Below are positions 17,628 through 60,554 of a DNA stretch of 64,000 nucleotides, piece by piece. The DNA is from an uncultured Phycisphaerales bacterium (GTDB taxonomy: Bacteria; Planctomycetota; Phycisphaerae; Tepidisphaerales; Tepidisphaeraceae): NCBI GenBank assembly GCA_963758525.1, contig CAVWVQ010000003.1, forward strand, positions 2,368,001-2,432,000, given 5' to 3'. Under the pieces are notes generated by a model. The model ran no database searches, was not told the DNA's origin, and was given only the letters and a program-made list of their open reading frames with translations. Each line of letters begins with the position of its first letter. Position 1 is the stretch's first letter. A program made the position numbers and the translations under genes.

Positions 17628-17709
17628 GCCCAGGTGGCGGAACTGGCAGACGCACTACTTTGAGGTGGTAGCGCCGCAAGGCGTGCAGGTTCAAATCCTG
17701 TCCTGGGCA
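17628..17709 (+). tRNA. tRNA-Leu (anticodon GAG), CCA not encoded
   Basis: Acceptor GCCCAGG/CCTGGGC, D-arm TGGCGGAACTGGCAGACGC, anticodon arm CTACT-TTGAGGT-GGTAG, long variable arm, T-loop GGTTCAAATCC. Confidence 0.95.
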
Positions 17710-49804: not shown

Positions 49805-49981
49805 TCCGCGAGCGACGGCCCTGCTGAACGCGCCTCGCGAGCGAGGCGGCTAAAGGCATAAGGCCGCTCTGCTGACACAAGGACATTCGGGATCCGATAA
49901 CGTGGGAAAATCTTCCCGGGACCTATCTTCGGCTGGTTCCGGGACGATATTCGTTGGGTGAACTGCGGTCCGTTGACAGCG

Positions 49982-51229
49982 ATGAAGTTGATCCGCCAGG
50001 CGGCGGCCTCCAGTTATTGGTCGCCGGAGAAGCTCCACGCGCATCAGGAGCATTTTCTGCGGCTGCTGCTGGAGCACGCGTATGCGAATGTGCCGCTGTA
50101 CCGCCGGATCTACGACGAGGCGGGGTTTCGGCCCGATCACTTCCGGTCGCTGGACGACCTGGGAAAAATCCCCCGGCTCCACAAGGCGATGTTGAAAGCC
50201 GCGCCTCGTCAGGACGTTGTGGCGCGCGGCATCGACTTCTCTCAATGCACGATCGTCTGCACCAGCGGCTCAACCGGGATCCCGCTGAAGATGTATCTGG
50301 GCGCTTTCGAGATGCAGTGGCAGCGGGCAGTCGCGTGGCGGATTCTCTTCGAGCATGGTTACCGCCTGACCGACCGGACGCTGGAAATCCGCATGACGCC
50401 CGGGCCAACCCACTGGCTGCAAAATCTGGGTATCGCCCGAAAAGACTGGCTGTCAATCCTCGATCCGCCGATCTCTTGGGCGCGGCGGCTCGCGAAACGC
50501 AATCACCAGATCGTCATCGCCTCGGCGACAACGCTAGGCGCGCTTGCGGAAGCGGTCGAATCGGCTGGCCTGAAGATCAATCCGCCGCGGCTGATCATTT
50601 CCGACAGCGAAACGCTTGCGCCCAAACGCGGGCGCTGATTACGCGCGTATTGGGGACAGGGCCAGTAGACGTGTTCGGGTTGGTCGAGGTGTCAAACTTC
50701 GCGTGGGAATGCGAAGCGAGGAACGGCTTTCACATCAGCGCCGACAGCCATCTGGTTGAAGTTGATGCCGCGCCCGGCGAGATCGGACCGATGATCGTCA
50801 CCGACCTGCGGATGCGCACCATGCCGATCATCCGGTATGACTGCGGGGACATGGCCGAGGCTTCACCTGGCGATCAGAGATGTTGTTGCGGGCGAACGCT
50901 TCCGCTGCTCCCGCGGATTTTCGGGCGGGCGATCGACTCAGTCTTGCTCCCCGACAGCCGACGGCTCTTCTGGCCGTTCTTCCACGAAATTCTCGGCGCA
51001 GGATGAGCTGTTGCAGTGGCGTGTCACTCAGACCACGCCTCGGCGGATTTGCCTCCAGTTGTCACTGTTGAACGACGATCTGGCGCGATGTGAGCGTATT
51101 GCTGAAGAGGTTCGCAGGCAGTTGCCGCGGGATTTGGAGCTGGTGACCGAGCAAGTTGAGCGGTTCGAGTATGTACCGAATGAAAAAGTTCGGCAGGTGA
51201 TCTCGCTGGTCAAGCCGGGTGTGCATTAA
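49982..51229 (+). CDS. Phenylacetate-CoA ligase-like (PaaK/CapK) adenylate-forming enzyme; frameshifts ~50620 and ~50998
   Basis: HAYANVPLYR, TSGSTG.P, FGLVE, TDL...MPIIRY..GD, CCCGR.LP....GR. Confidence 0.85.
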
Positions 51230-51514: not shown

Positions 51515-52906
51515 ATGAACAAAGTCATCGATCTTGAAATCTCGGACAGAACGACAGTTTGCAAAGCGCGCGTTGAGGAACGGCGATCCGGATCGCATGG
51601 CTCCTCCGCGCCTTCCCTCGTTACCGAGACGCTTGCGACCGCAACCCTTGTCCGTCGCCTGCGCCGGGCGATGCGAGATGATGCGTCACGTGTGTCGGCG
51701 GATCGCGATCGGCTTCTCCGCGAGATGGTTCGTCACGCCTGGGAGCGCGTGCCATTTTATCGCGAGCACTGGAGCGGCGGCGGATTCGATCCGGGGGAGT
51801 TCCGCGGGGAGAGCGACCTGCATCGCATCCCGTTGGCGCGTCCCGCTCAGATCAAAGCGGCGCTGGCCGCGGGGCGGCTGCTGCCTGAAGGGGTGCGGCC
51901 CGAGGACTGCGGATTTCTGGAATCGAGCGGGTCATCATCCGGCGTTCCGTCACGCTACTATCGCGGCGTCAGCGAAGAGCGCATCCGCCGCGCCGTCGGG
52001 CTTCACATTTGGCGCGAGCACGGCTTCGGCTGGCGACACTCCACTGCGCAATTTCAAATCAAGCCCGGCAGCCAGCACGTTCTTCAGCGGCTTGGCATCG
52101 CCCCGAAAACGTGGATTGGATCGACCTTGCCGACCTCTGAGCAGCTCGAATTGTTCCTCAGCGCAGGTGCTGATGTTGTGGCCGGCACGGCAACCGCGCT
52201 GCGGCGCATCAGCCGGGCGATCGAATCGTCGGTACGCAAACCAATGAAAGCGCCCCGCCTGGTGATTTGCGCCGGCGAACTCGCCGACGAAACCACCCGC
52301 CGGCTCGTGCGTCGAACGCTCGGCGCGGAAATCGTTGCGCTCTATGGGATGACGGAGGTCGGTTATGTCGCCTTCCAGTGTGAGCTGCGCAGATCGATGC
52401 ACGTGAATCCGCTTTCGCACATCGTCGAAATCAATCGAAACGGCCGCCACGTTGCCGGCGGAGAGATCGGAGAATTGGTCATCACCGATCTTCATTCGCG
52501 GACCACGCCGTTGATCCGCTACGCCAATGGCGATCTCGCGACTGCCTCTTCCTGCGCGTGTCCCTGCGGACGTTCGTGGCCGCCGATCGCGGCAGTGGAG
52601 GGCCGCGCGTCTGGTTGCATCACTTTGCCCGACGGGCGCGTGCTGACGACTCGCCAGATCGTCGATCACATGGCTGACGCCGCCGACATCGGGCTGTATC
52701 GCATCCGCCAGCACGCGATCGACAAGTTCACCATCGAATTCTTCGACGAGCTTACTGAGGCCCGCCGCACGGCACTGGTCTCCCGCCTGGGCGAGATCAC
52801 CGGCCGGGCGGATATTGTCGTTCGATCCGCTGCCGCGCCGTCGACCGATGGGACGGGCAAGACGCAGTCGGTCGTCTCCGAAGTTCCGCCGGTCATCCAG
52901 GCGTGA
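51515..52906 (+). CDS. Second PaaK/CapK-like adenylate-forming enzyme (start may be downstream)
   Basis: HAWERVPFYR, SSGSSSG, YGMTE, TDL....PLIRY..GD, CPCGR, VEGR, TGKT. Confidence 0.88.
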   Translation: MNKVIDLEISDRTTVCKARVEERRSGSHGSSAPSLVTETLATATLVRRLRRAMRDDASRVSADRDRLLREMVRHAWERVPFYREHWSGGGFDPGEFRGESDLHRIPLARPAQIKAALAAGRLLPEGVRPEDCGFLESSGSSSGVPSRYYRGVSEERIRRAVGLHIWREHGFGWRHSTAQFQIKPGSQHVLQRLGIAPKTWIGSTLPTSEQLELFLSAGADVVAGTATALRRISRAIESSVRKPMKAPRLVICAGELADETTRRLVRRTLGAEIVALYGMTEVGYVAFQCELRRSMHVNPLSHIVEINRNGRHVAGGEIGELVITDLHSRTTPLIRYANGDLATASSCACPCGRSWPPIAAVEGRASGCITLPDGRVLTTRQIVDHMADAADIGLYRIRQHAIDKFTIEFFDELTEARRTALVSRLGEITGRADIVVRSAAAPSTDGTGKTQSVVSEVPPVIQA

Positions 52907-54990: not shown

Positions 54991-55259
54991 GCGAGCTCCT
55001 CTCGCAAAATTATATCACAAAATCATGCCGCTGAGCATTCTTCAGGCGGCGGGTCGTCGGGCAGATGACCACGGCGCGCGCCCGCACGCCGCGTGAGTTG
55101 CCCGTGCCAGAAGAAAAATGCCCCAAGCACGCAAAGTGACAGGCCTCCGGTGTTGCAACTGTTTCAATGCCGGCTTTTGAAGCATCCCGCGGCATACCAG
55201 CCAAAAAAGCGTTCCAATCACAAGTTTAGAATTTGGCGGGGAATACGAATCGAACATGT

Positions 55260-55277
55260 TTTGGCACGTCGTGCGCT
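55260..55277 (+). promoter_or_regulatory. Putative sigma54 promoter
   Basis: TTTGGCACGTCGTGCGCT: GG (55263-64), N10, GC (55275-76), about 40 nt before ATG 55318. Confidence 0.7.
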
Positions 55278-55317
55278 ATGCGTTCGCACGAGCTTTTTGA
55301 GTCAAGAGAGGAGCGTC

Positions 55318-55997
55318 ATGGACAAGAACGCCACGGTAACCGTGCGGGCCGAGCCCTATGAGTATGAATTTGTGCCGGCCAAGTGCGCGCTGCTGATCAT
55401 CGACATGCAGCGAGACTTCCTGGAGCCGGGGGGATTTGGAGAAATGCTGGGGAATGACGTTTCCCAATTGCGGCGAACGATCGAGCCAAACAAAAAATTG
55501 CTGGCGGCTTGGCGCAAGGCGGGGCTTCAAGTCATGCACACACGTGAAGGGCATCGGCCGGATCTCACGGATCTGCCGCCGGCCAAGAAGGTGCGCGGCG
55601 CAGCGCGACTTGCATAGGAGACGCGGGTCCGATGGGACGCATCCTCGTCCGCGGCGAGGCGGGACACGACATTATCCCTGAACTTTACCCGCTCCCGACT
55701 GAGCCGGTGATCGACAAGCCTGGCAAGGGGGCGTTCTTCGCCACCGACTTGCAGGCGATTCTCAATAACCGCGGAATAACCCATCTGATCGTAACTGGTG
55801 TCACGACTGAGGTCTGCGTCAACACCACCGTTCGCGAGGCCAATGATCGCGGCTATGAATGTCTGATCCCCGAGGATTGCGTCGGTTCTTACTTTCCGCA
55901 GTTTCAGGAAATGGGGCTCAAGATGATCAAAGCCCAGGGCGGGATATTCGGGTGGGTCACCAACTCTTCTCAGATTCTCGATGCCATCAACAGTTAG
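55318..55997 (+). CDS. Cysteine hydrolase of the triuret/biuret hydrolase (TrtA/BiuH) group; frameshift ~55600
   Basis: [51 protein letters not shown]. Confidence 0.88.
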
Positions 55998-56114
55998 ACG
56001 ACCATGCACGACCGAGTGTCATCCTCTCAACATTTAGCGGCTGTCCCATGGGCAGCATGTCGTTCGGAATGGACGCGTACTCGCGCCCATTCATCCATTT
56101 AAAAGGAACTTGTC

Positions 56115-57746
56115 ATGAGCACGCTCGAAGCTTCTCCATCATCAGACTTTAAGCCCAAGTTATGGGTGCCGGGAGACTGGAACGCGTTCTTCGGATTTGG
56201 AACCAACATCCTGGTCAACCTGCTGACGCTCAGCGCCCTGCTGCTGTTCGTGCTGCAGATGCCGCCGGACATGGTGTTCAAACGCATTCTTCCCGCCGCG
56301 GGCATGATGATGTGCATGAGCACGATGTATTACGCCTGGCTGGCGTATCGTCTGGCGAAAAAGACAGGGCGATCGGATGTGTGCGCGCTCCCCTCCGGCA
56401 TCAGCGTGCCGCACATGTTCATTGTGACATTCGTCATCATGCTTCCCGTGAAGCTTGCTACAGGCGATCCCGTGAAGGGATGGCAGGCGGGTCTTACCTG
56501 GGTGTTCATCCAGAGCTTCGTGCTGATGCTCGGCGGCTACATCGCGCCGATCGTCCGAAAGATCACGCCGAAGGCTGCTCTGCTCGGCGCGCTGGCGGGC
56601 GTATCCATCACCTTCATTTCGATGAAGCCCGCGCTTGAAATGTATATGACGCCGGTGATTGGCGTCGTCTGTTTTTCGATCATTCTCGTGAGCTGGTTCG
56701 GTGGCGTGAAGTTTGGCGGGATCCCCGCCGGGCTGGTTGCCATCGCGGGCGGTATGCTGCTGGCGTGGGGATCGACGCTTCTGCCCGAGGCGTATCACAT
56801 CGGCGGGATGAGCGCCGAAGGCCTCAAGGCGTCGTTCAAGACCTTCGGATTCCATGGACCGCTGCCGACTGTTGGCTTGGTGCTGGGTGGATTGCACTGG
56901 AGCTTCCTCAAGACGATTCTCGTCACCGCTATTCCCTTCGGCATTTATGACCTGGTGGAAGCGATGGACAACGTCGTCAGCGCTGGCGCTGCCGGCGATG
57001 AATATCCGACCACCCGCGTGCTGACCGCCGACGGCGTGGTCAGCCTGATCGGCTGCCTGATGGGCAACCCATACATCAACGCCGTTTACATCGGCCATCC
57101 CGGCTGGAAAGCGATGGGCGGCCGCATCGGCTATTCCGCGGCCACGGGGGTCATGGTCATCATCCTCTCCTGGTTCGGGATCATCTCGCTGATGACCGCC
57201 ATCATTCCGGTCGTCGCGATTTCGCCGATCCTGCTCTACATCGGTATGCTCATTGGCTCGCAAGCCTTCCAGGAAAATCCGCGACGCCACGCTCCGGCAG
57301 TCGTTGCGGCCCTGGTTCCCTCCATCGCGGCGTGGGGCAAGCTGATGATTGATAACTCGCTGGGCGCGGTGGCGGGCATCCACAGCGTAACTCCAGAGAT
57401 GATCGCCTCAATGGCCCAGACCGGCGTGCTTTACAAAGGGCTCAGCGTGCTCGGGGGCGGCTCGATCCTGGCTGGTGTGGTGCTCGGCGCGATGGTCACC
57501 TTCATCATCGAGCGCGAATTCCTCAAGTCGGCCGGATTCGCGGCAGCAGGCGCCGTCCTCAGCTTCCTCGGACTCATGCACGGGGAAGCTGTCGGACTCG
57601 GGCAGTCTCCGACGGTGGTGGCGGCATATCTGATCGTCAGTGGCGTGCTGCTGGGCTGCCACATGTTCGCGGATGTGCCGGCCGTCTCTCCCGCGGAAGA
57701 AGAAGAGGAACAGGCCGGCGAAGGGGAGCTCGTGCCGGCGACGTAA
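56115..57746 (+). CDS. NCS2/AzgA-like permease, probable triuret/biuret-type N-compound transporter
   Basis: About 14 hydrophobic segments, 'GDWNAFFG', 'ALPSG.SVP', 'VYIGHPGWKAMGGRIGYS'. Confidence 0.8.
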   Translation: MSTLEASPSSDFKPKLWVPGDWNAFFGFGTNILVNLLTLSALLLFVLQMPPDMVFKRILPAAGMMMCMSTMYYAWLAYRLAKKTGRSDVCALPSGISVPHMFIVTFVIMLPVKLATGDPVKGWQAGLTWVFIQSFVLMLGGYIAPIVRKITPKAALLGALAGVSITFISMKPALEMYMTPVIGVVCFSIILVSWFGGVKFGGIPAGLVAIAGGMLLAWGSTLLPEAYHIGGMSAEGLKASFKTFGFHGPLPTVGLVLGGLHWSFLKTILVTAIPFGIYDLVEAMDNVVSAGAAGDEYPTTRVLTADGVVSLIGCLMGNPYINAVYIGHPGWKAMGGRIGYSAATGVMVIILSWFGIISLMTAIIPVVAISPILLYIGMLIGSQAFQENPRRHAPAVVAALVPSIAAWGKLMIDNSLGAVAGIHSVTPEMIASMAQTGVLYKGLSVLGGGSILAGVVLGAMVTFIIEREFLKSAGFAAAGAVLSFLGLMHGEAVGLGQSPTVVAAYLIVSGVLLGCHMFADVPAVSPAEEEEEQAGEGELVPAT

Positions 57747-57780
57747 AATCGAAATTGCCGTTCACTGTTCTCGACAAGAG

Positions 57781-57817
57781 CTGCAAGCTCCACGTTTCTG
57801 TGGAGCTTGCAGTCTTT
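57781..57817. terminator. Intrinsic terminator hairpin between convergent genes
   Basis: ctgcaagctccac gtttct gtggagcttgcag tcttt. Confidence 0.75.
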
Positions 57818-57865
57818 AATGCTCTGATTTTGTACGGTTGACCGTTATGGGATGGAGACAGGTCG

Positions 57866-58285
57866 TCATGGTTTGGCTGAGAGATCGAAGCTCCCTGCCG
57901 GCACGTTGCCCGAGAGCAGGAACACCTGCACCATCGTGCCGCTGGTGAAGACCTGAACGACCGCGCCGGACGCGGGGTCCACTTCCGCGGCCGCCTCGCG
58001 CACGTCCATCCCGGTAATCCGTCTGATTTCTTCGCGCAGCGTTGCCGACGCGCTCAGAAATAACTGCCGATGAAACTCCTGCACCTTGGCTGCGCCATCC
58101 GCGCTCTGCGCCATCGCCTGTTCGGCCGGAGACAACGCGCCGTGCAGCGTGACCACCAGCGTATCCCCGCTGAGCACAACGCTGACCGATTTAGGCTCGT
58201 GGCCGGTCCGCGCCTGCTGGAACGCGGTTGCGGCCTGGGCAATTTGCTCTGCCATTGTTTGTTTGGAATGCTGCGTCACATTCAA
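57866..58285 (-). CDS. DUF2294 / MpsC-family protein
   Basis: 'FQQARTGHEPKSVSV.L....LVVTLHGALSPAEQ', 'I..ITG..V'; TTG start at 58285 or ATG ~58255. Confidence 0.85.
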   Translation of the reverse strand: MNVTQHSKQTMAEQIAQAATAFQQARTGHEPKSVSVVLSGDTLVVTLHGALSPAEQAMAQSADGAAKVQEFHRQLFLSASATLREEIRRITGMDVREAAAEVDPASGAVVQVFTSGTMVQVFLLSGNVPAGSFDLSAKP

Positions 58286-58306
58286 ACCCCGTCTTCGCGA
58301 AGTGCG

Positions 58307-58416
58307 AAAAAAAACCGACGTGCTTCAACACCGCTGAGGTGCTCAATCACGCCGGATTACTCTGCAACAAGCCCCCCGACTGCGCGGGTTGCCTTTTATT
58401 TAGTCGTCCGACGACT
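58307..58416 (-). ncRNA. Structured leader RNA with intrinsic terminator (candidate attenuator or riboswitch)
   Basis: Hairpin 1 58402-16, A-rich linker, bulged hairpin 2 58369-95, terminator stem 58315-55 plus U8 (58307-14), 22 nt before the DUF2294 start. Confidence 0.65.
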
Positions 58417-58507
58417 GTAGATATTGCCCATTTGGCGGGCCTTTTCAGGTCGGCCTGCTTGTAACCCTACCCCTGTAACTCTGGAATAGCAATAAGTAAT
58501 ATAGCAG

Positions 58508-58888
58508 CTATCTTCGTTTTGCTTCACGGAAGACAGGCAATCCAGCCAGAGTGAACAAAACGACCTCCTCGCCGGTCACGGTGCTGATGTCGTGATGCAG
58601 ACTCATCGATTTATTGCCGGTGATGCTCTCCACCATCGCCTCCATGGTGGGCCGTGCGATTTCGATCAACTGGCTGCGCACCTGCTTCAGCAGATCTCTG
58701 CCTTTCTCGGGCGGGAGCGTTTTCACCAGGTGCTGCTCCGCGGCGGTCAGAACGCCGGTCAGTCGGACGACAATCAGGTTATCGATCAGGTGGGCGCGAA
58801 CGTCCTTGGGGCCTCGCCCCATGTATTCCTGTTCAAAACGGCTCATGCCCTCTGCAATAGCGCTCTCGATTTCGCCCTGAGTCTTCAT
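58508..58888 (-). CDS. DUF2294 / MpsC-family protein
   Basis: MKTQGEIE..I......FEQEYMGRGP, VRL.GVLTAAE..L, G..LLKQVR, SLHHDISTVTGE. Confidence 0.92.
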   Translation of the reverse strand: MKTQGEIESAIAEGMSRFEQEYMGRGPKDVRAHLIDNLIVVRLTGVLTAAEQHLVKTLPPEKGRDLLKQVRSQLIEIARPTMEAMVESITGNKSMSLHHDISTVTGEEVVLFTLAGLPVFREAKRR

Positions 58889-59009
58889 CAGGAAAAGGAG
58901 TATACCATGCAACTAGACATCGCTGGTGATTTCCCTTTGATCCCGGAAATGGACGGGAAGCGCTACGAGCTTTATTCAGACGGCACATTCGCCGAGGTCG
59001 ACCGTTAGA

Positions 59010-60554
59010 TCAGCTCAAATGCCGCAATTGCCGCTTGGGAAGTCGACCGACTGGCGTCGAGCGGCGGGCGGATATCGCAGCCTCCGGCAACCAGGGCCGG
59101 AGAAAATCGGGGCAGTCGCTTCGGCCGCCACGCTGGTAGTCGTTCCAAAGGGTCTGCGCAATCAGGGCCGGATCGAGATGCGCTTCGTTGCGCAGATAAG
59201 TGGCCACGGACTCAGCAAGATGTTGCAGGGAAATGCCATGCTGGCGGCCGAACTTCCGGGAGAGCCAGTCGCTGAAGTTGAGAAAATGGTGGAAGGGAGA
59301 GCCGCTGGTCCAGAGGAGCGGCGTGGTGTCGATGAAGTTGCCGCTGTTGGCAACCAGGTCCCAATAGCGCGAGAACCGGCGGAGGCGCTGCATGGTCGGG
59401 AAGTCGATGCTCGCGGTTTGCAGGATTTCATAGGGGGGAGTCGGACTGTAGACCATGCCCCACTGGGCATCGTGACGCACGATCGGGGTGCCGCGGAGGC
59501 GCTTCAGCAGGCCGACCTGGATCTCGTGGGGGGCGAGGCGGATCAGTCGATCGAAGCCGACGCCGAAGCTTTCGAGGTCTTCGCCGGGAAGGCCGACGAT
59601 CAGATCGGCGTGGATGTAGACGCCGGTTTCCTTGCGAAGAAAACGCAGGTTCTCTTCGACTTTGGCGTTGTCCTGACGGCGGCTGATTCTTGCCGCGACG
59701 TCGTCATTGAATGTCTGAATTCCCACTTCGAACTGTAGCGCGCCGCGCGGGAACCGTGCGATCGGCTCTCGCAACGCGCTGGGCAGGCGATCGGGGATCA
59801 TCTCGAAGTGCAGAAACAAGCCGGGCTCGTAACGCTCGTGAAAGAATTCCAGAATCGCGCGGCCAATCGAGAGATTGAGGTTGAACGTGCGGTCGACGAA
59901 TTTGAAGCGGCGGAGTCCGCGATCGAGCAGGCGCTGCATCTGCGCCAGGAACAAGTCAACTGGCACGTTCCGCACGGGAACGTCGAGCGAGGAGAGACAG
60001 AACTCGCAGCGAAACGGGCAGCCGCGCGAGGCTTCGACGTAGACCACGCGATGAGCCAGGTCCTGTTCGTCGTACAAGTCGTACGGCAGGGCGAGCTGCG
60101 TAAACTGCGGGAGCGAGGCCGCTATGATTTTGCGCTCGGGGCGCTCGCCATCGAGCAGTCGCTGACAGAGTTCCGCGAACGCGAGGTCCGCTTCGCCGGT
60201 GACGACGTAATCGGCAAGGCGGACAATTTCCTGCTGATCCGTTTCGTGGCTGACTTCCGGCCCGCCAAGAACGACGAGCACGTCGGGGCGGATACGTTTC
60301 AGATCGGCCACTAGCTGCGTGGCCGGGGCGACGTTCCAGATGTAGACGCCGATTCCCACGACTTTCGGATCGAACGCGAGAATTTTTTCGAGGATGTCGA
60401 CCGACCGCTGGCTGACGTCAAACTCAGCGAGCGACGCCCGTGCGCGCAGCGGGCCAAGGTTGGCCAGCAAATATCGCAAGCCGAACGCGGCATGAGCGTA
60501 CTTGGCGTTGAGGGTGGTGAGGACGATGTCCCGTTGACTGCAATCGCCGTCCAT
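59010..60554 (-). CDS. B12-binding radical SAM protein (DUF4080 type)
   Basis: [32 protein letters not shown] (CxxxCxxC), [19 protein letters not shown]. Confidence 0.93.

Follow-up and report, generated by a model that had tools for sequence, protein, structure and literature searches.

The window, which is the whole 64,000-nucleotide stretch of DNA that was analyzed, contains two genes for MpsC/DUF2294 proteins on its minus strand. The upstream gene (58508..58888) encodes a class A protein of 126 aa, a candidate RNA-binding antiterminator. The downstream gene (57866..58279) encodes a class B protein of approximately 137 aa. Both had been described as DUF2294/MpsC paralogues in the initial annotation, and both score above the curated PF10057 cut-off of 23 bits (123.2 bits for class A and 79.5 bits for class B). 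The two proteins share 28% identity. PF10057 is the only Pfam family that either of them matches, with no CAT, PRD, or ANTAR domain, and no NCBIfam match was obtained. GTG at 58279 and TTG at 58285 are candidate start codons for class B. The GTG is probably the start, based on the N-termini of homologues and a GGGG site. The gene after class B is convergent in the ORF map, so the attenuator of the window fronts the class B gene alone.

A putative extended -10 promoter for the class A gene can be read from the sequence at 58899..58907 on the minus strand, 10 nt before the ATG. If it is correct, the class A mRNA would be near-leaderless. A hexamer resembling it is found at an equal distance from the start in two other loci, L024 and L021. 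A sigma-70 scan of window positions 56000-60500 returned no promoter, the putative -10 included. A search for RNA runs that contain this DNA listed none. The spacer between the two genes holds the two hairpins, the terminator, and the run of eight U residues that were initially described, all on the minus strand at 58416-58307.

Several other genes are present in this part of the window. A gene for a BiuH-like biuret amidohydrolase (55093-55997, plus strand) is split into two ORFs near 55610-55630, and the two parts align with positions 8-91 and 103-221 of the model. The next gene encodes a 543-aa membrane protein (56115-57746, plus strand) with no Pfam or NCBIfam match, which presumably resembles a nucleobase permease. 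Two tandem, similar-looking AMP-binding/CoA-ligase-like genes are found at 49958-51229 and 51515-52906 on the plus strand. The first is apparently split across frames, and only the second gave a Pfam match, a weak one.

The RNA rod and its terminator

The spacer is a conserved RNA rod that overlaps an intrinsic terminator. The rod, designated the type I element, is 64 nt long (58350..58413, minus strand) and scores 71.9 bits with its model, R1. It consists of three helices, two internal loops, a bulged G at 58368, and a tandem purine mismatch. The loop core that is common to the RNA types has a 5' half, GG-NNG-AY (58403..58409, minus strand), and a 3' half, RU-ARR-CC (58354..58360, minus strand). 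At the third loop position of the 3' half, the window copy has a U and 173 of the 199 listed copies have a G. The CC of the 3' half doubles as the start of the terminator (58307..58355, minus strand), which has its stem at 58355-58315 and its U8 at 58314-58307. Compared with shuffled sequences, the terminator is much more stable (z -4.5; 0 of 200 shuffles), and its upper stem is also similar between copies.

Hairpin 1 (58402..58416, minus strand) and hairpin 2 (58369..58394, minus strand) had been proposed as separate units. The conserved unit is better described as one rod of 64 nt, with hairpin 2 as its upper portion; hairpin 1 is a fold that the 5' strand can adopt in the terminated state. 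The predicted fold of the complete 116-nt leader consists of both hairpins and the terminator. When the leader is cut before the 3' arm of the terminator, it refolds into the rod, in which 58413-58408 pair with 58355-58350 (CGUCGGA/UCCGGCG). This is the pairing that had been predicted for a conditional terminator with a mutually exclusive antiterminator, and it is conserved in the family.

Covariation was examined in an alignment of 130 of the 133 de-replicated copies; one copy from an unpublished genome, G004, and two with long insertions were omitted. In the 21-pair rod, 91.8% of the cells are paired. Changes on both sides were found at 15 pairs and in 113 cells, as against 33 in shuffles, and 0 of 500 shuffles were as high. 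Slid controls of the same alignment lowered the paired cells to 26-49%. The lower helices barely vary and are partly fixed by the scan pattern and the anchoring, and thus the signal comes mainly from the upper helix. Hairpin 1 was rejected as a conserved unit, with 69.5% of its cells paired and covariation at the shuffle level in four of five measures. A conserved core had been suggested for this spacer, and it exists in the form of the covarying rod and not of hairpin 1.

A terminator with a U tract is present at the end of 188 of the 192 type I copies that have enough flanking sequence. By forced folding, the terminator state is preferred in 174 of 189 copies, by a median of 9 kcal/mol. For the window copy the values are -42.3 for the terminator and -38.2 for the rod, a margin of 4 kcal/mol. 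Stepwise folding of this copy indicates that the rod persists until the final terminator bases are made. In 129 of 136 type I copies, the first downstream gene (80 aa or longer) shares the strand of the element. The rod and terminator are likely a transcription attenuator that is off by default.

The DNA upstream of 197 type I copies was searched, and no promoter at a fixed position was identified. Hexamers resembling a -10 cluster near -55 to -60 upstream of these copies. Behind such hexamers, an inverted repeat, GGAGCC...GGCTCC, was found upstream of about 35-39 of the 197 copies. Examples lie 80 nt upstream of the type I copies in L047, L051, L054, L087, and L091, and the repeat is absent at the window copy. 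The repeat could form another RNA hairpin or serve as a DNA operator.

Distribution of the RNAs and the genes around them

The window genome possesses four type I copies: the one in the window, a divergent pair at C3:1518057-1519620, and one on contig C5, which has no terminator. The divergent pair flanks a LuxR-type response regulator and leads into PAS histidine-kinase operons. A third MpsC gene is located 3.5 kb on from this pair. Across species genomes, a pattern scan identified at least 137 stretches in at least 136 loci, of which at least 130 are titled Planctomycetota. Among the matches listed there are six loci from outside of this phylum. Three of these are real, from a delta-proteobacterial and an acidobacterial bin. 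The other three (L084, L088, and L138) are chance pattern matches with no model match. From this distribution, the window genome is probably that of a planctomycete. A profile search of the listed loci gave at least 199 distinct type I copies, nearly all from Planctomycetota. G004 contributes two of the 199 copies, three of the 134 downstream proteins discussed below, and one positive relative, and no claim depends on it. A genome can have up to 13 type I copies, and the distribution is patchy, with type I present in 8 of 41 genomes (the window genome and 40 relatives). Two type I copies lie in series at L081:5504-5706. On a viral contig, at L297:4744-5375, a class A MpsC gene comes directly after an intact type I element, the reverse of the usual order. 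Such a contig is a possible route of spread.

This RNA does not appear to be catalogued. Rfam 15 gave no relevant match at the gathering score for type I, for the type II RNA described below, or for the copies from Bacillota. The sole Rfam match in the window is a tRNA (17628-17709, plus strand), and at a relaxed threshold the spacer gave only two chance matches, far below threshold. The initial statement that the element belongs to no known RNA family thus agrees with the Rfam scan. The RNA was also not described in the literature searched, which extended to few subscription papers and to the main text of PMC11109978; the supplement of that paper is rich in further motifs and may list a related one. 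The attenuator family is real and uncatalogued, and its tie to MpsC is strong but indirect.

The genes behind type I elements can indicate what the RNA controls. A Pfam scan was performed with 134 of 175 candidate ORFs. Matches include CsbD (2), YflT, ferritin/Dps-like proteins (2), BON (3), a transglycosylase-associated protein, DUF1328, DUF3309 (3), DUF3185, DUF5670 (2), Hsp20, SPFH, FloA, fasciclin, and PRC-barrel proteins. Glycosyltransferase, GH130, glucan phosphorylase, G6PD, and AI-2E transporters were also identified, as were sigma-70 factors (3), CsrA-like proteins (6), STAS, DksA, and two-component proteins. Many of the 134 proteins have no Pfam match. The general-stress character of such genes is known from the sigma-B and sigma-S regulons. 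Together with the label of YflT and a statement on CsbD in the available text of PMC11109978, this allows the genes to be read as a stress-type and signaling set. Short CsrA-family genes recur early behind type I, often directly after class B (L006, L044, L049, L063, L073, and L087).

A link of this locus to inorganic carbon had been suggested from the function of MpsC in other bacteria. For the window copy and its type I relatives this was not borne out. None of the 134 proteins matches DabA, SbtA, carbonic anhydrase, or PEPCK. Neither DabA (PF10070) nor SbtA was found in the window genome, which is 91% complete. As candidate targets, DAB and SbtA were therefore set aside in this genome; it has one beta-carbonic anhydrase (C3:4004188), which is far from all four copies. 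The link does hold for related RNAs that are accompanied by a divergent MpsC.

These RNAs were found in genomes that possess MpsC and lack type I. The MpsC gene there encodes a divergent protein, A', and behind the gene there is usually a sigma-70-like promoter and, after it, a shorter rod and a terminator. The shorter rod was designated type II. It has the core GG-NNG-AY/RU-ARR-CC and the bulged G, and only these approximately 14 nt and the bulged G are common to both types. Among 24 type II sequences 95.5% of the cells are paired, with 31 double changes vs 7 in shuffles (0 of 500). The RNA type tracks the protein group, with type I accompanying A and type II accompanying A'. Genes for PEPCK, DUF4914, SbtA, argininosuccinate synthase, and B-like paralogues are present behind type II, and no CsrA-like gene was identified in the type II loci scanned. 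One locus, L279, has four type II copies within 4.8 kb.

A metagenome sample of 80 loci of A'-like genes was also explored. The type II profile gave 25 anchored matches, one of them weak, in 22 of the 102 loci searched. When the DNA behind the genes was examined with a relaxed attenuator test, 26 of 72 MpsC genes with flanking sequence gave a positive result, compared with 11 of 280 other ORFs. Clear variants, for example L294, L245, and L255, escape this test. Downstream of A'-like genes, 69 proteins from 53 loci were scanned (68 of the 104 listed, as selected by the authors, and one more). A gene related to CO2 or bicarbonate follows MpsC in 28 of these 53 loci. These include PEPCK (11), purC/purE (9), and gamma-carbonic anhydrase (3, one shared with purC). 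Carbamoyl-phosphate synthase, acetyl-CoA carboxylase, a carboxyltransferase, pyruvate carboxylase B, biotin ligase, and isocitrate dehydrogenase were found once each. A distinct, longer leader that ends in an A-rich stretch and AAGGCC at the terminator is located behind the MpsC gene in seven loci (L224, L228, L241, L242, L244, L247, and L254). Where these loci were scanned, it precedes purC, purE, and gamma-carbonic anhydrase. Six of the seven were compared with Rfam and gave no match, and the leader is possibly a third RNA type.

In Bacillota, a rod and terminator are present in two of four plasmid records. They lie between DUF2294 and SbtA in Anoxybacillus (L207) and between DUF2294 and an MFS transporter in Acetoanaerobium (L205). 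Neither rod is significant with either RNA model. Upstream of the Anoxybacillus DUF2294 gene there is another structured leader (L207:7830-7985), which includes a terminator-like hairpin of its own and has no Rfam match. The ndhF-dabA leader of Staphylococcus pettenkoferi has a clear terminator and no clear rod or core. No element was found in the DNA examined for the DUF2294-fdhD locus of B. badius and for genome G146. The form with A' and type II or variant RNAs is apparently the older and more widespread one.

It is very unlikely that these RNAs do not switch at all and are instead constitutive terminators, small RNAs, or dispersed repeats spread with a mobile cassette. The numerous similar copies in single genomes, the patchy occurrence among relatives, the similarity of the upper terminator stems, and the copy on a viral contig are what would be expected of a repeat. 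A repeat or a plain terminator would not explain compensatory changes that preserve a helix incompatible with the terminator. It would also not explain the orientation of the copies ahead of same-strand genes, the position of type II copies between sigma-70-like promoters and their genes, or the functionally coherent targets that recur in distant genomes.

The RNAs and MpsC occur together at the genome level. MpsC was found above the cut-off in 11 of 149 genomes of the phylum. Type I is present in five of the 149, four of which have MpsC, and type II in six, all with MpsC. Thus, 9 of 10 genomes with either RNA type have MpsC, compared with 2 of 139 without, in a set whose genomes are incomplete and whose kin are not independent, so that Fisher values for it are overstated. 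One of these two RNA-negative genomes, G169, carries a variant copy. No sequence from its six positive genomes went into the type II model; to the type I model, some of its positives did contribute copies. Among the 40 relatives, MpsC was found in six of the seven with type I vs 2 of the 33 without it, and those two have type II RNAs. In three incomplete genomes (G095, G012, and G337) the RNA is present and MpsC was not found. The copy in G095, which is 89% complete, is intact at 77 bits. Copies are often degenerate where class A is broken or was not detected, as in G174 (31.9 bits), whose class A gene has an internal stop, and in G012 (51 and 48 bits). The G012 copies, L304 and L305, precede metabolic genes, which from their sequences we take to encode a class I aldolase and a transketolase, and a phosphoketolase. 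One genome, G084, possesses an A' protein together with both RNA types.

The rod could also be the aptamer of a ligand-binding riboswitch, with the MpsC genes as neighbors or accessory members of the regulon. Highly conserved unpaired nucleotides, covariation, and a terminator platform ahead of genes are features that would suit an aptamer, and the riboswitches of Rfam 15 likewise combine a conserved structured 5' element with a terminator platform, although none is matched here at the gathering score. Na+ and Li+ riboswitch classes are included in Rfam 15. No evidence was found for Na+ or pH, which had been among the signals first proposed. A riboswitch would likewise be consistent with the three genomes in which the RNA was found and MpsC was not, with a class A core that is not basic, and with the S. 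aureus delta-mpsC strain, which shows no growth defect in the available text of PMC6689103. It nevertheless appears rather unlikely, because only approximately 14 nt and a bulged G are common to both types, and because carboxylation genes and stress genes would need to be served by one and the same ligand. The RNA is tightly tied to MpsC at the genome level, and class A is mostly outside of the regulated unit. In addition, a stabilized rod should mean ON, whereas direct sensing of bicarbonate in front of SbtA or carbonic anhydrase would call for the opposite response.

Proposed control by MpsC

The two classes of MpsC are not equivalent. Class A proteins of planctomycetes share 69-79% identity, and class B forms a separate group in a quick tree (support of 91 and 98). 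The 32 A and A' proteins that were compared all share R25, R42, K68, R71, R79, H98, and D100. All seven are replaced in most class B proteins, and the class B protein of the window lacks the basic ones. Members of PF10057 from staphylococci and Anoxybacillus keep R25, K68, R71, H98, and D100. A PF10057 gene is also present in the B. subtilis control genome, and we take YbcI to be the member of the family in B. subtilis. The position of the genes also differs between the classes. In 133 type I copies with 600 nt of flank on each side, class A is located within 400 nt upstream of 46 elements (32 divergent and 14 in the same direction), within 400 nt downstream of none, and 400-3500 nt downstream of three. 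Class B is within 400 nt downstream of 32 elements and 400-3500 nt downstream of 16 more. The suggestion that a DUF2294 protein could act in trans on the RNA is thus plausible from the genome co-occurrence and the gene order.

The predicted structure of class A is not informative on RNA binding. The AlphaFold model is a confident one, with a pLDDT of 90.8. Matches to other structures were no more than middling: Foldseek returned no match at E<=0.001, the best VIA-align Z score was 6.9 with none at 8 or above, and a search of the ESM Atlas gave MpsC clusters only. A sequence search of the PDB gave nothing below an E of 0.45, and no sequence relation to a solved structure was seen. In the literature searched, largely without subscription papers, no regulatory role of MpsC was described.

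The reading that is favored here, and considered fairly probable from the sequence comparisons, is antitermination that depends on the class A MpsC protein; class B would be a modulator that is itself regulated and probably does not bind. The rod is predicted to form first during transcription. The more stable terminator would then displace it unless something stabilizes the rod, and termination would be the default. Class A could bind the conserved internal loop and the bulged G, as LicT and BglG do on RAT hairpins, and bound class A would hold the attenuator open and allow read-through. Class B, which has lost the conserved basic residues, would be the output of the switch and a feedback modulator. 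Antitermination by class A is supported by the conservation and covariation of the antiterminator fold and by a terminator that prevails unaided. In planctomycetes the same switch would front stress-type and signaling genes. For the form with A' and type II or variant RNAs the signal is likely a shortage of inorganic carbon, because the targets consume or supply CO2 or bicarbonate. Ahead of an uptake gene such as SbtA, stabilization of the rod by bicarbonate itself would give ON at an inappropriate time, and this favors a protein that is released or inactivated by CO2 or bicarbonate. In S. aureus, mpsA was 1.7-2.5-fold lower at 5% CO2, according to the available text of PMC6689103.

Some observations do not fit antitermination by class A. 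These are the three genomes without a detected MpsC gene, the reversed order on the viral contig, the S. pettenkoferi leader without a rod, and the mixed genome G084. The class A core has a net charge of -2 to -5 when the basic tail is excluded, which counts against a simple RNA-binding reading. The S. aureus delta-mpsC strain grew normally in air (PMC6689103, available text), and this is evidence against a strictly required activator of mpsAB in that species. The RNA ahead of S. aureus ndhF (mpsA) bears on the same point. As RsaX05 it was first listed as "Cis-acting leader of ndhF?" (PMC2790875), the closest that the literature searched comes to such an element. RsaX05 is a synonym of Teg41 (PMC2873960, PMC11538773), which in the available text of PMC6428751 is a trans-acting regulator of alpha-PSM production and is argued to be a stand-alone RNA and not a leader; this also is evidence against a strictly required MpsC activator in S. 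aureus. RsaX05/Teg41 ends in a terminator directly ahead of the mpsABC operon, and it is likened to the present RNA by this position. S. aureus MpsC belongs to PF10057, as do both proteins of the window. MpsABC/DAB loci encode DabA with MpsC, whereas no DabA was found in the window genome.

The logic of control by MpsC could also be a different one. The protein could promote termination, act only as an A/B pair, or relay the signal to a different RNA-binding protein such as a CsrA-like one. A negative or redundant role would agree with the normal growth of the S. aureus mutant (PMC6689103, available text), and the B-type paralogues that are found with both RNA types could suggest a pair. The CsrA-family genes, found six times among the 134 downstream proteins, are themselves targets, and the scanned type II loci yielded none. 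A single A-like gene adjoins the RNA in many type II and Bacillota loci, the fold that is conserved and covaries is that of the antiterminator, and the terminator already wins alone. These alternatives are considered unlikely.

Antitermination by class A would resemble several known systems. In the RAT systems of BglG, SacY, and LicT, a hairpin also partly overlaps an intrinsic terminator, the regulator gene is also beside its target, and read-through needs the hairpin to be stabilized, as is predicted here. The RAT hairpin is approximately 30 nt long (PMC12591593, available text), compared with 64 nt for the rod, and its consensus is unrelated. BglG, SacY, and LicT have CAT and PRD domains and control sugar uptake, whereas the MpsC candidates (126 and 137 aa) show neither domain and the targets here are stress or CO2 genes. 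The hutP-hutH locus of B. subtilis is similar in its gene order of a small single-domain regulator, a terminator, and a target, as in class A, attenuator, and class B. By analogy, HutP as a small, ligand-gated protein is likely the counterpart of class A MpsC. HutP binds single-stranded NAG motifs and destabilizes the terminator (PMC12591593, available text), whereas a structured, covarying antiterminator is conserved here. ANTAR antitermination uses a dual-hairpin RNA target (PMC12591593, available text) and an ANTAR protein; here there is one covarying rod, and the flanking proteins have no ANTAR domain.

A broader reading is put forward only tentatively. MpsC/DUF2294 may be an undescribed family of RNA-binding antiterminators gated by CO2 or bicarbonate that, with their cognate rods, control genes for inorganic-carbon uptake and carboxylation in Bacillota and many uncultured bacteria. 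In Planctomycetota of soils and sediments it may have been rewired to a multi-locus general-stress regulon that is run by antitermination instead of an alternative sigma factor, with the non-binding class B as a feedback partner. If true, this would provide an answer, open to direct test, to the question of how non-photosynthetic bacteria tune bicarbonate uptake and carboxylation genes to the supply of CO2. A preprint on B. subtilis (10.64898/2026.09.08.750065) leaves the mechanism of adjustment to the CO2 supply open, and its available text has no mention of ybcI, a leader, or attenuation. The system would contribute a new RNA family along with a new candidate family of antiterminator proteins, and a planctomycete stress regulon run at the level of termination is predicted. 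The RNA of 64 nt and the protein of 126 aa are small enough for tests in vitro or in E. coli.
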